Origin: Chthoniobacteraceae bacterium
Lineage (GTDB): Bacteria; Verrucomicrobiota; Verrucomicrobiia; Chthoniobacterales; Chthoniobacteraceae
Length of the DNA: 17,375 nt
NCBI GenBank assembly: GCA_037190965.1
Contig: JBBCKI010000033.1
Location: forward strand, 1 to 17,375
Reading direction: 5' to 3'
Below, piece after piece: positions 3,502 to 13,980 of this stretch. The notes under the pieces are model-generated. The model made no database searches. It saw only the letters and a program-made list of their open reading frames with translations, and had not been told where the DNA came from. Position numbers and translations under genes: made by a program. How positions within the stretch are numbered: position 1 is the stretch's first letter; each line of letters begins with the position of its first letter.

Positions 3502-3680
3502 CGGGCGGCACTATGGCACAACCGGGAAAAAATAAAAGCGGCCTCCTGCCTCGAATGAGTCGATTTCCACTCGAAACCCGGAGGCAACGTTCGCCGGTCC
3601 CAAGATAGGATGAAAAACGAATTGCAGGGACCGTGTTTTCCCGGGGATAATCATTGATCATGCCTTCCTCCTTGTCTGAA

Positions 3681-3853
3681 TTAAACCCGAACTCCGACGT
3701 TGGTCGCGGCGAACCGACACAGTTTGTTGGTCGCGAGTGCCTTTCGTCAAAGACTCACCGTATCTGAAGATACGCTTCGCTTTTCCTCAATGCATCGCGA
3801 CTCAACCTCTTGCGCCAGTTCATCCGCTCCAACATCGGAGTTCGGGTTAAACC
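3681..3853. mobile_element. Fold-back palindromic element copy A, inserted in the 5' end of fabF
   Basis: Terminal inverted repeat AACCCGAACTCCGA(C/T)GTTGG (3684-3703) / CCAACATCGGAGTTCGGGTT (3829-3848). Apical hairpin CGTATC-TGAA-GATACG (3759-3774). Direct repeat TTAAACC at 3681 and 3847, 166 bp apart. Homologous to 10031-10202. Confidence 0.9.
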
Positions 3854-5076
3854 GCGTGGTCATCACGTCGGCGGGAATTGTGAGCCCGTTGGGGACGGGT
3901 TGGGAGGAAACGCTCGATGCCCTTCTTTGTGCGCGCGACTGCGTGGCGCCGGTGCGCCTTTTCGATGCAAGCCGCTGTCGCTCGCATACCGCCGGGCAGG
4001 TGGATGATGCCCGGCTGGAGAAGCAGAAGACGGCAGGGGACAGACATGCGGCGGATCGCCACCGCGCCAGCCGGATGATGATCGCCGCCGCGCGGGAGAC
4101 GTTTCTCGGGGATCCCGATTTCCGACCGGAGGCCATGGTGATCGGCACCACCAGCGGCGGCATGAGTTTCGGTGAAGCTTTCTATCGTTCCCTTGTGCTT
4201 CCTTCCGGGGGGGAGCGGGGGCGGCAGCCGGGTTGGCTGGCCAACTATGCCCCGCAAAAGGCGGTGCTCGACGCTCAGGAAGCGGTCGGGTGCGACCGGT
4301 TTGACGTGCCATGTCAGGTAATCGCCAACGCCTGTGCCTCCGGCACCAATGCCATCGGGCATGCCTGGAACCTGATCCGCAGGGGATTCCGCACGCGGGT
4401 GCTCGCAGGGGGGTATGACGCGATTTCGGAACTGGTCTTTGTCGGGTTCGATTCGTTGCAGGCTTCCACGCCGGAGAAATGTCGTCCTTTCGATAAAAGG
4501 CGCACCGGGTTGGCGCTCGGCGAGGGCGCGGCGCTCATGGCGCTGGAGTCTCTGGAGTCCGCACTGGAACGTGGCGCGCCGATTCTGGGCGAGGTGGTCG
4601 GCTACGGGCTCTCCACCGACAACCATCACCTCACGCAGCCGCATCCTTCGGGTATCGGGCCGTTGCAGGCGATGCGGCGCGCCCTGGAGTCGGCGGGGCT
4701 TGCACCGGGCGACATTGGCTACATCAACGCCCACGGAACGGCCACTCCCTTCAACGACGCCACCGAAGGGGCCGCCATCGAACAGCTTTTCGGGAAGAAC
4801 GGCGTCCCGGTCAGTTCCACCAAGTCGCTTATGGGGCACTCCCTCGGCGCGGCGGGAGCCATCGAGGCGGTCTTTTCGCTGATGGCCATCCGGCATGGGT
4901 TTCTACCGCCCAACGCCAATTATCAGGAGGCAGACCCGCAATGGGAACTCGACATTGTGGCCAACACGGCGCGTCATGCCCGGGTGCAGCGAGTGCTTTC
5001 CAATTCGTTCGGTTTCGGCGGGACCAACGCGAGCCTGATCCTGCAGGCAGCAGAGGCGAAAGGAGGGGCACAGTGA
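3790..5076 (+). CDS. fabF: Beta-ketoacyl-ACP synthase (FabF/KAS II family); start uncertain (ancestral ATG probably 3660, in-frame ATG 3790 lies within the repeat)
   Basis: 'RVVITSAGIVSPLG', catalytic Cys 'ANACASG', His 'YINAHGTAT', His 'STKSLMGHSLGAAG', C-terminal 'SNSFGFGGTNASL'. Confidence 0.92.
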   Translation: MHRDSTSCASSSAPTSEFGLNRVVITSAGIVSPLGTGWEETLDALLCARDCVAPVRLFDASRCRSHTAGQVDDARLEKQKTAGDRHAADRHRASRMMIAAARETFLGDPDFRPEAMVIGTTSGGMSFGEAFYRSLVLPSGGERGRQPGWLANYAPQKAVLDAQEAVGCDRFDVPCQVIANACASGTNAIGHAWNLIRRGFRTRVLAGGYDAISELVFVGFDSLQASTPEKCRPFDKRRTGLALGEGAALMALESLESALERGAPILGEVVGYGLSTDNHHLTQPHPSGIGPLQAMRRALESAGLAPGDIGYINAHGTATPFNDATEGAAIEQLFGKNGVPVSSTKSLMGHSLGAAGAIEAVFSLMAIRHGFLPPNANYQEADPQWELDIVANTARHARVQRVLSNSFGFGGTNASLILQAAEAKGGAQ

Positions 5077-9218: not shown

Positions 9219-10010
9219 ATGCTAAAAATTCTGTTTCTGGGTGATGTCGTGGGTGAACCCGGCCGCCGAGCCGTGATTGAACTCATGCCCGTCCTGAAAA
9301 AAGAGTATGATCTCGATTTCATGATCGTCAACGGCGAGAACGCCGCGGGAGGGCGAGGGATTACCCCCAAGATCACCATCGACCTCCTTCGGGGTGGCGC
9401 TTCGGTCGTCACCACAGGGGATCACATCTGGGATCAGAAAGAAATTTTTGGCTACATCGACACCGAGCCTCGTCTGCTCCGACCCATCAACTACCCGCCC
9501 GGCACGCCGGGGCAGGGGAGCGTCGTGCTGGAAACGGCGAAGGGCAAAGTCGGCGTCATCAACGTCCAGGGCCGCACGTTCACGCTGCCGCATCTGGAAA
9601 ATCCGTTCCTCGCGCTCGACGCCGCCGTGGAAGAAATGCGCCGCGAGACATCGGTGATCTTTGTCGATGTGCATGCCGAGACCACCAGCGAAAAAATCGC
9701 GGTGGGCCGGTATCTGGACGGGCGTGTTTCGGCAGTTGTCGGAACCCATACCCACGTTCAGACCGCCGATGAGCAGATCTTCCCGGGCGGAACCGCTTTC
9801 CTCTGTGACGCCGGGATGTGCGGACCGCTGGAGTCAATTCTGGGCCGGGAGATCACGCCGATCATCAACCGTTTCCTGACCAACCTTCCCAACAGTTTCC
9901 CGGTGGCCAAGGGCCCGGTTGGGCTCAGCGGCGCGCTGGTGGAAATCGATCCCGCCACCGGCCGCGCGTTGCGAATCGAGCGGTTTGCGCGCCGGTATGA
10001 GAATGGTTAA
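9219..10010 (+). CDS. ymdB: YmdB/TIGR00282 family metallophosphoesterase
   Basis: 263 aa. 'ILFLGDVVGEPG', 'NGENAAGG.GIT', 'TTGDHIWD', 'LLRPINYP', 'DVHAETTSEK', 'VVGTHTHVQTADE'. Confidence 0.95.
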   Translation: MLKILFLGDVVGEPGRRAVIELMPVLKKEYDLDFMIVNGENAAGGRGITPKITIDLLRGGASVVTTGDHIWDQKEIFGYIDTEPRLLRPINYPPGTPGQGSVVLETAKGKVGVINVQGRTFTLPHLENPFLALDAAVEEMRRETSVIFVDVHAETTSEKIAVGRYLDGRVSAVVGTHTHVQTADEQIFPGGTAFLCDAGMCGPLESILGREITPIINRFLTNLPNSFPVAKGPVGLSGALVEIDPATGRALRIERFARRYENG

Positions 10011-10015
10011 GTCGC

Positions 10016-10036
10016 GTTAACGAATTCTTCGTTAAC
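10016..10036. repeat. Short perfect hairpin between convergent genes (possible terminator component)
   Basis: GTTAACGAA-TTC-TTCGTTAAC: 9-bp stem, 3-nt loop, 5 nt after the ymdB stop. Its right arm is shared with the left end of copy B. Confidence 0.5.
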
Positions 10037-10202
10037 CTAAAAGCGGCAATGGATCGGGGCGGTCTGACGCAAAATGCTAGCCGCGAGTGACTTTCGAAAA
10101 GACTCACCGTACCCATAGGGTACGCCTCGTCTTGTTCTCAAGTCATCTCGGCTCAGCATCTTGCGCCAGCTCATCCCCTCCCATCACCGCTTTTAGGTTA
10201 AC
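10031..10202. mobile_element. Fold-back palindromic element copy B (homologue of copy A)
   Basis: Perfect 16-bp terminal inverted repeat GTTAACCTAAAAGCGG / CCGCTTTTAGGTTAAC. Apical CGTACCC-ATA-GGGTACG (10108-10124). GTTAAC at 10031 and 10197, 166 bp apart. The right end contains the TAA stop of the methyltransferase gene. Confidence 0.9.
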
Positions 10203-11151
10203 AGGCCGAGGGCTTTTGTCCCTTTTGCCGCGCTCCCGAGTTTCGCTCCCAGAACACTCCGTCAGCATACCCCTGGATGGTGGGGTCCTGCCTTGCCATC
10301 TCCAGGCGTTTGAGGCCCAGCAGGCAGTAGTCGCGGTCGATCTCGATACCCACGTAACGGCGGTCCAGCTTTTTGCAGACCGCTGCCGTGGTGCCGGAGC
10401 CATGAAAGGGATCGAGCACTACGCTGCCGGGCGCGGTGCTGGCGAGCACCAGCTTTGCGACGAGCTTCTCGGGCTTTTGGGTAGGATGATCGGTGTTCTC
10501 CGGCATCGACCAGAATGGGACGGTGATGTCTGACCAGAAATTCGAAGCGCCGGTGAGGCGGAAGTCGCCGTTATCTTCCTCTGTCCAGTCTTTCGGTGCG
10601 CCATCCACCCGATAGGGGGCGACGACGCGCCGTTTCATCTTTACCGCGTCGGAGTGGAATTCGTAATCCGCGCTCATCGTGGCAAACCAGATGTCTTCGG
10701 AGCAGTTCTTCCAGTTGGCCTTTGCTCCCCGGCCTTTTTCGCGTTCCCAGGTGATCCGGTTGCGGACGGTGAAATGGCGGTTAAGAACGGGGAAGATCGA
10801 GGCCGAGGTGAGCCAGTCGCCGCAGAGATAGATGGAGGCAGTTGGCTTCAGGAGCCGCTTGAGCGGGATCAGCCAGGATTCCAGCCACTCCGCATAAAGT
10901 TCCGGGGTTTGTTGTCGGAACTTTCGCCCGTTGAAATCCTTGCCGAGGTTGTATGGCGGATCGGCGATGAGCAAATCGACAAATCCCGAAGGGAGCAACG
11001 GCAGCGCCTCGAGCAAATCCTGGTGCAGAAGCGAGTCGAGGAGGTCGCCCGGCGTGGCGGGCTGCGAGAGCGTGCGCAGGCACGGCTCAAACGCCACCCG
11101 ATCCTCCGGAGAGAGCGTGATCGTCCGGTTCCTGGGGGCGCGGATTTTCAT
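10198..11151 (-). CDS. Site-specific N6-adenine/N4-cytosine DNA methyltransferase, beta class, apparently orphan
   Basis: 317 aa. Catalytic motif IV 'VDLLIADPPYN' precedes 'HPTQKPEKLV' and SAM-binding motif I 'VLDPFHGSGTT..YVGIEID'. Confidence 0.93.
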   Translation of the reverse strand: MKIRAPRNRTITLSPEDRVAFEPCLRTLSQPATPGDLLDSLLHQDLLEALPLLPSGFVDLLIADPPYNLGKDFNGRKFRQQTPELYAEWLESWLIPLKRLLKPTASIYLCGDWLTSASIFPVLNRHFTVRNRITWEREKGRGAKANWKNCSEDIWFATMSADYEFHSDAVKMKRRVVAPYRVDGAPKDWTEEDNGDFRLTGASNFWSDITVPFWSMPENTDHPTQKPEKLVAKLVLASTAPGSVVLDPFHGSGTTAAVCKKLDRRYVGIEIDRDYCLLGLKRLEMARQDPTIQGYADGVFWERNSGARQKGQKPSAC

Positions 11152-12482: not shown

Positions 12483-12500
12483 GGGTCAGCTTCCGCCCTA

Positions 12501-12660
12501 GGGCCTGTTAAGGTAACGACTCAAATCGGCGTAAAAGGCGCTTTTTGGCCCAAAATGGCGCTCTTCAGGCGTCCGAATCTCGATTCGACCGCCTTCATCA
12601 CCCCATTTTCGGCTCAAAAATCGCTCTTTTATCCTCATTTCTCGTTACCTTAATAGGCCC
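12501..12660. mobile_element. 160-bp fold-back MITE-like element between response regulator and kinase genes
   Basis: 19-bp terminal inverted repeat with one mismatch, GGGCCTGTTAAGGTAACGA / TCGTTACCTTAATAGGCCC, flanked by TA on both sides (12499-12500, 12661-12662). Internal symmetry is centred exactly on CGAAT-CTCG-ATTCG (12574-12587). Confidence 0.88.
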
Positions 12661-12664
12661 TAAA

Positions 12665-13828: not shown

Positions 13829-13980
13829 CCTCGTTACCAATCTCCAGATTGGTAATGCCCTTGTCTTCGAATCTCTGATTCGAAAACCTTGTTATCTCGT
13901 GTAGGGTGCCGGAACGAACAGGGTTGCGAAACTGGAGTTTCGAAGACACGGGCGTTCCCAAACAGAGTTTGGGAACGAGG
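13829..13980. repeat. REP/REPIN-like composite inverted repeat (four nested hairpins)
   Basis: Left arm CCTCGTTACCAATC-TCCA-GATTGGTAATGCCCTTGTCTTCGAATC-TCT-GATTCG is the imperfect reverse complement of right arm CGAAAC-TGGA-GTTTCGAAGACACGGGCGTTCCCAAAC-AGA-GTTTGGGAACGAGG. Confidence 0.85.

Follow-up and report, generated by a model that had tools for sequence, protein, structure and literature searches.

INTRODUCTION

Several families of bacterial MITEs, among them RUP (with IS630-Spn1), Nezha, and MITEPye1 (with IS1182), are described in the excerpts consulted as geneless elements of 100 to 200 bp with IS-like terminal repeats, a target duplication, a long predicted stem-loop, and a patchy distribution (PMC2229807, PMC3184786, PMC11578231). 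The hairpins of bacterial MITEs are usually read as RNA. In the Bacillus cereus group, the bcr1 repeat is ~155 bp long, is flanked by 5-bp direct repeats, occupies non-conserved positions, and has a compensatory structure, so that, on the part of that report drawn on here, compensation in a MITE-like repeat is already known (PMC3184786). For the IS1380 family (ISEcp1, ISPme1; PF13701), the sections consulted report tolerance of IR-like alternative ends and state that the transposition pathway is unknown, although a replicative mode is hinted at (PMC9330008). In integrons, the attC strand is, according to the passages used, stabilized by G.T pairs and purines and lies mostly on the leading template in chromosomal integrons (PMC5027507, PMC5371416).

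Here we describe two copies, A and B, of a ~160-base non-coding MITE in a window of 17,375 nt (the whole stretch of DNA that was analyzed). They resemble RUP, Nezha, and MITEPye1 in general build, bcr1 in their compensatory structure, and IS1380 in their termini and AT-rich 5-bp target, as seen in the IS1380 elements L013 and L039; the likeness to attC lies in which strand is stabilized and in where that strand probably lies.

RESULTS

Two copies of a fold-back MITE and their host sites

Table 1. Coordinates of copies A and B, their parts, and the neighboring host genes in the window
Feature	Coordinates	Strand	Remark
Copy A	3686..3846	- (better-folding strand)	161-bp MITE, A-type ends
A left terminal repeat	3686..3702	+	16/17 identity to downstream end of intact IS1380 L039
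A right terminal repeat	3830..3846	-	16/17 identity to same L039 end
A left target duplication copy	3681..3685	+	TTAAA, 5 bp
A right target duplication copy	3847..3851	+	TTAAA, 5 bp
A apical hairpin	3759..3774	.	6-bp stem, 4-nt loop
Beta-ketoacyl synthase gene (host)	3660..5076	+	Split by A ~8 codons past probable original ATG (3660)
Copy B	10036..10197	- (better-folding, rod strand)	162-bp MITE, B-type ends
B left terminal repeat	10036..10052	+	16/17 match to downstream end of second-clade IS1380 L097
B right terminal repeat	10181..10197	-	
B left target duplication copy	10032..10035	+	TTAA, 4 bp in B
B right target duplication copy	10198..10201	+	Contains stop codon of minus-strand DNA methylase gene
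B apical hairpin	10108..10124	.	7-bp stem, 3-nt loop
N6/N4 DNA methylase gene (host)	10198..11151	-	Terminates at B
ymdB-like gene (host)	9219..10010	+	Convergent on B

A preliminary description of this window had proposed a pair of diverged fold-back elements. Both are real, and they are two of many copies in the genome; the length of 166 bp first given for them counts one copy of the target duplication, the elements proper being shorter (Table 1). The four shared sequence blocks that had been pointed out were found at matching offsets (A, positions 3732, 3749, 3771, and 3808; B, positions 10082, 10098, 10121, and 10159), as were the terminal, middle, and apical stems named for each copy, and A and B align with 116 identical positions in 165 columns.

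The beta-ketoacyl synthase orthologue lacks the insert in 5 of 5 congeners, so A's site is empty there. No empty-site allele was seen in two DNA read runs, the second of which covers the window in short pieces only. As an observation apart, at 3660 to 3860 A puts the synthase gene out of frame past what was probably its original ATG; the frame stays open through A from position 3700 and holds an in-frame ATG at 3790, absent from other copies, which, to judge from the reading frame, may serve as a new start for the gene.

Copy number, length, and distribution of the family

An iterated nhmmer profile returned 73 deduplicated hits (~70 loci) in the host genome (G000), 28 of them near full length; many other copies are internal deletions of 20 to 125 bp that retain both ends. 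The elements are thus dispersed and multicopy, besides being short, non-coding, and bounded by terminal inverted repeats of 12 to 17 bp, all of which are traits of MITEs. Full-length copies measure 159 to 164 bp, except that one G108 variant has 205 bp and one G012 copy 178 bp. Full-length relatives occur in eight other genomes, namely G011, G108, G012, G156, G328, and 3 of 150 additional genomes of the phylum that were reached with a covariance model; metagenome contigs hold such relatives as well. The spread is patchy, with members in 3 of 41 relatives by DNA search and in 3 of 151 genomes of the family by A-type end search, and with none in five congeners of the host. The same interior scaffold occurs beneath at least five distinct end types.

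Short copies without the apex are frequent, and for this reason the whole rod may not be needed. Apex deletions were near-symmetric in 12 of 31 copies against 4.9 expected, a weak excess, given that a single recurring 66-bp form makes up 6 of the 12 and that the count omits the 7 of 38 short copies that had either no gap or two. Two short forms were seen besides: a 20-bp remnant (G000 C35:10702-10721) consists of only the two paired ends with an exact 5-bp duplication around them, and G000 C23:24901-25013 and G012 L139:1449-1561 share one 49-bp internal deletion, located at a 5-bp microhomology, which may reflect recurrent deletion or a mobile short form.

The rod is kept by compensatory changes and is predicted to fold better on one strand

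Folding exceeded chance in both copies and on both strands, none of 200 shuffles being as good in any case (z of -10.4 for B and -7.6 for A on the plus strand; -13.1 and -11.9, respectively, on the minus strand; 200 shuffles each). The plus strand had been folded in the preliminary description; it is the minus strand that folds better, with same-span energies of -105.9 versus -82.0 kcal/mol in B and -96.2 versus -69.7 kcal/mol in A. This strand, rich in G.T and tandem G.A oppositions, was the better folder in 45 of 46 copies with RNA parameters and in 41 of 43 with DNA parameters, three diverged G000 copies having been left out of the latter alignment; C25, a diverged copy, is better folded on the opposite strand.

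That compensatory substitutions maintain the rod held up in a larger alignment, in which covariation is present along its length: among 37 copies, both partners have changed in 30 of 46 consensus pairs, and paired cells made up 94.8%, versus 80.2% in shuffled and 32 to 42% in slid controls, in counts that ignore relatedness, rest on a structure derived from the same alignment, and use singletons in place of a tree-based count of independent compensations. In a wider set of 19, 25 of 34 pairs change on both sides. Helices 1 to 3 of the rod are 90 to 92% paired.

Mismatches retained in the rod were counted in arm-to-arm alignments, strand-neutrally and per element, and summed over nine subfamilies (78 copies). 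G.A exceeded C.T by 81 to 4 and G.T exceeded A.C by 47 to 17, in the same direction in 9 of 9 subfamilies; tandem GA/GA scored 26, versus 0 for tandem TC and 0.1 for AG/AG. As the subfamilies share an ancestor, this asymmetry amounts to about one observation on ~10 positions rather than nine, and the 3 to 5 tandem GA positions may be an inherited accident. A perfect palindrome in decay would be expected to collect mismatches that are chiefly transitions and to favor neither strand. No clear G.A asymmetry was seen in further elements whose ends are IS1380-like (G014, G013, and others), so that it is not general to such ends. Mutation bias was considered as the cause and rejected by inference, the strong (better-folding) strand being G-rich (52 G versus 38 C) and yet lying on the C-rich chromosome strand; private changes, moreover, were only mildly biased (46 versus 30, P = 0.085).

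Resident copies decay without regard to pairing

Differences private to single copies (76 copies, eight groups) occurred at 0.018 per paired site and 0.014 per unpaired site (P = 0.20). Paired and unpaired sites thus mutate equally, which places the decay in settled copies and the compensation between subfamilies. Private changes to Watson-Crick pairs produced a mismatch in 81 cases and G.T in 46. Same-copy double changes numbered 5 against 1.4 expected (P = 0.006), an excess that fits some arm-to-arm conversion or unsampled sublineages. Selection on a single-stranded DNA or RNA rod, as had been suggested for A and B, is supported in part: there are signs that a single strand matters, and the free breaking of pairs in resident copies disfavors a structured host RNA.

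Termini and target duplications link the family to IS1380

The true ends read CC...GG and are flanked by a target duplication of 4 to 5 bp. We take CC ends with a 4- to 5-bp duplication to be the rule in the IS1380 family, and L013 and L039 both show this combination directly. An exact 5-bp direct repeat flanked 18 of 40 end pairs in G000 and a repeat with at most one mismatch 27 of 40, one row being probably spurious; duplications were exact in 19 of 20 fetched G108 copies and in 4 of 4 G615 copies. The idea that target duplications had been made palindromic by conversion was dropped (2 of 40 only). The earlier suggestion of a non-autonomous mobile element is borne out.

Among the genome contigs searched, the A-type end pattern had a sole match, the end of the ~2-kb PF13701 element L013, which has a 5-bp duplication; the L013 transposase as a protein query had matches in 12 of 151 genomes. 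G108 holds an intact 1,511-bp IS1380 (L039) with the same termini and target as the A-type MITE, and also a young MITE burst. B-type ends were present in 18 of 401 genomes of the order, and 1 of the 20 B-type end loci examined borders a PF13701 transposase (L097), which belongs to a second clade and is 28% identical to the transposase of the first. In G328, decayed second-clade IS1380 elements accompany a related MITE of a third end type. Matches to PF13701 elements were hence obtained for A-type (L039, L013), B-type (L097), and third-type ends (the decayed IS in G328); L039 was found by protein search and not through its ends, whereas L013 and L097 were found via the end pattern, so that their end match is by construction.

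The termini of A and B differ because the subfamilies are keyed to different IS1380 clades. Of the proposal that the termini differ while the interior is kept, the difference between A and B is confirmed, but the termini do not drift, each subfamily keeping its own repeat. Nor do both termini belong to one ordinary IS, the alternative that had been raised against the proposal: A and B ends match two IS1380 clades.

A helper element with matching ends was found in G108, a decayed one in G328, and a non-matching one in G615, where the predicted end match failed, the assembled IS1380 having ends unlike those of that genome's young MITE; no IS1380 transposase was detected in G000 (PF13701 and tblastn), G513, or G522. 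We regard it as highly probable that A and B are IS1380-type MITEs. Their mobilization in trans by IS1380-family DDE transposases is likely, judging from the young bursts beside the intact IS in G108.

Similarity between the MITE interior and the IS was confined to a 62-nt stretch that matches the left end of one IS at 68%, and intact IS1380 ends do not pair beyond their repeats (~16 bp). The idea of the MITE as the 5' leader of the IS itself was considered and rejected; in G328 it is inserted in the decayed IS with its own duplication.

Further observations on IS1380 and small elements

Several observations were made in passing. In G328, MITE copies have inserted into decayed IS1380 elements that belong to their own clade (L181:144-830, L182:1403-2146), a pattern also described for RUP within pneumococcal IS genes. 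In several relatives, the IS1380 5' leader (L039:1310-1420, L043, L049, L053) has a predicted fold that covers the probable start codon of the transposase, possibly as a guard against read-through translation. A conserved ~19-bp internal palindrome from the inner terminal repeat occurs 70 to 200 bp inside the right end in L013, L039, L040, L041, L042, and L047. Small elements with B-type ends and unrelated interiors were found at L095, L103, L107, L109, L100, and L101, and several small elements with such ends carry a short palindrome that is also present in the second-clade IS1380 leader (L175). At L013:1255-4503, a frameshifted IS1380 stands just past a truncated terminase-like frame, which by eye looks like a prophage remnant.

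Other fold-back repeats in the window

Two further repeats are present. Family C (12499 to 12662) is a second, unrelated ~160-bp fold-back MITE with 13 loci, 7 of them full length; its ends are GG...CC, flanked on either side by TA in 5 of 7. The two termini of this family also vary in step with each other while its interior is kept, and its minus strand folds better. Family D (13829 to 13980; 72 loci, 58 full length) has two terminal hairpins within a longer inverted repeat, is REP-doublet-like, and often adjoins copies of the A/B family.

Orientation follows replication and not the neighboring genes

The G-rich chromosome strand carries the weak (less well folding) strand of the element in 54 of 57 loci of G000 (10 of 67 loci were unclear) and in 50 of 54 when gene-independent skew at fourfold sites was used. 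In five other genomes, the weak strand was on the G-rich strand in 52 of 62 loci in total. These include 16 of 18 for young copies in G108 and 4 of 4 for identical copies in G615; in G328 the figure was 17 of 20, on short flanks.

IS1380 elements and fragments had no bias (9 versus 7, with 5 of 21 unclear), in line with the consulted portion of a survey that reports an orientation "bias in few or no chromosomes" for IS1380 (PMC3971601). Family D, which folds evenly on both strands, was likewise unbiased (30 versus 32), and family C, with its asymmetric fold, was biased the same way as A and B (8 of 8). On these controls, the bias tracks folding asymmetry and not the transposase. No bias to host transcription was seen: among 44 copies, with gene calls that were crude, those lying between co-oriented genes split 12 versus 14.

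The G-rich strand was taken as the fork direction by convention. In favor of the convention are 54.4% of genes and the two marker genes L2 and dnaA; tRNA orientation does not support it (13 versus 17), and skew tiles in two one-contig relatives, 13 of 20 of which agree, give weak support for fork direction.

DISCUSSION

We read A and B as copies of an IS1380-type MITE that is moved in trans and whose rod acts as single-stranded DNA in replication rather than as RNA, and we assign this reading as a whole a probability of roughly 0.6. Taken by itself, the proposition that the rod acts as single-stranded DNA at the replication fork, and not as host RNA, seems to us a good deal firmer than an even bet. 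The G-rich strand would be the exposed lagging-strand template and would carry the weak version, leaving the well-folding strand on the leading-strand template. Copies in the reverse orientation would fold on the template of the lagging strand and be quickly lost, by slippage between target duplications, hairpin cleavage, or excision, and only the protected orientation would accumulate. This orientation filter alone does not account for a phylum-wide rod of constant length. As the weakest step, the rod may be maintained in moving lineages, either because folding of the strong strand favors mobilization or because folding lets a new transposase-matched end be copied onto the other end, while settled copies would decay without selection on pairing. 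A difficulty here is that one folded strand offers a single 3' end, which fits poorly with two-ended DDE insertion and a 5-bp duplication that needs two.

The most serious competitor accepts the same IS1380-type MITE and gives its rod no function. Template switching would copy arm to arm and so yield both the compensatory pattern and the re-keyed ends, and a survival filter against folders on the lagging template would preserve whatever mismatches make the strand there fold less well, of which G.A and G.T on the strong strand would simply be the complements. The excess of same-copy double changes and the neutral decay of resident copies speak for it, as do the common short forms and the terminal positions 7 and 8, which take many matched forms in old G000 copies and are mismatched in young bursts; it also calls for no new chemistry. 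However, conversion should erase mismatches, yet loops and bulges stay at the same places throughout the phylum in elements of 160 to 164 bp, and the tandem G.A mismatches occur as GA/GA and almost never as AG/AG, though at few ancestral positions. Moreover, were folding purely harmful, a weakening of both strands would pay, doubling survival, and on this ground we modestly favor a functional rod (mobilization or end re-keying) over functionless conversion, for which we would put the odds at not much above one in four.

Selection of the MITE rod as RNA is improbable, whether that RNA is a co-transcript cleaved by RNase III, as with NEMIS, or the product of a promoter of its own. Precedents exist in NEMIS and bcr1 as presented in the sections consulted (PMC2229807, PMC3184786), the G.U pairs and tandem GA are RNA-like, the RNA folding energies are very low, and B starts right at a stop codon with its strong strand co-oriented. 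Set against this are the strong bias to replication skew with none to neighboring genes and the pairs freely broken by private changes. A scan around B gave no sigma-70 promoter or terminator match, and no Rfam family was found at A or B at E ≤ 1. With the absence of the family from the five congeners, these findings also disfavor a structured RNA family, one of the two options first put forward.

HUH and IS200/IS605 elements have, to our knowledge, neither target duplications nor terminal inverted repeats, and the A/B family has both. The other option, a structure-recognized element moved by an HUH/RAYT or IS200/IS605-type transposase, is therefore very improbable, since the 4- to 5-bp duplications are those of a DDE transposase and the end-pattern scans led to PF13701 elements with IS1380-like ends, even though the strand-specific fold and replication-linked orientation resemble IS200/IS605 as covered in the material used (PMC3971601) and GTAG-REP-like repeats adjoin some copies.

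The IS1380-type reading could be carried further, by analogy, than we think likely: IS1380-type DDE transposases might move the MITEs via a folded single strand, with the rod as the recognized scaffold, the ends re-keyed to different transposases, and orientation as an on/off switch, in which copies fold and jump when their strong strand is on the lagging template and are stored when it is on the leading template. We regard this extension as doubtful, at about the odds of one outcome in five.

The A/B family separates options for what a MITE hairpin does, in that it combines a conserved, strand-specific fold with an orientation that tracks replication instead of transcription, whereas its parent IS is unbiased. 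The question of why MITEs fold thereby becomes testable, with a bearing on the transposition of IS1380, whose members spread resistance genes. The literature searched on IS1380 and MITEs, on MITEs of Verrucomicrobia, and on MITE orientation relative to the lagging template, a search with ISfinder and most subscription papers outside its scope, contained no such description in the portions consulted; as far as it extends, the link to IS1380, the single scaffold under at least five end types, and the strand-specific fold tied to replication are new.

Compared with RUP, Nezha, and MITEPye1, the family differs in having IS1380 as its partner and in placing one interior scaffold under several end types; a strand-specific fold and an orientation tied to replication do not figure in the consulted accounts of those elements. 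bcr1, in the part of its description used here, is a two-armed cruciform that is transcribed and read as RNA, whereas A and B form a single rod with IS1380 ends and a replication-tied orientation. Unlike IS1380 itself, the MITE has no transposase gene, and the intact IS, which shares its termini, pairs over only ~16 bp at its ends and shows no orientation bias. The likeness to integron attC is one of analogy only, as no integrase or cassette array is known for the A/B family, which consists of dispersed copies with target duplications.
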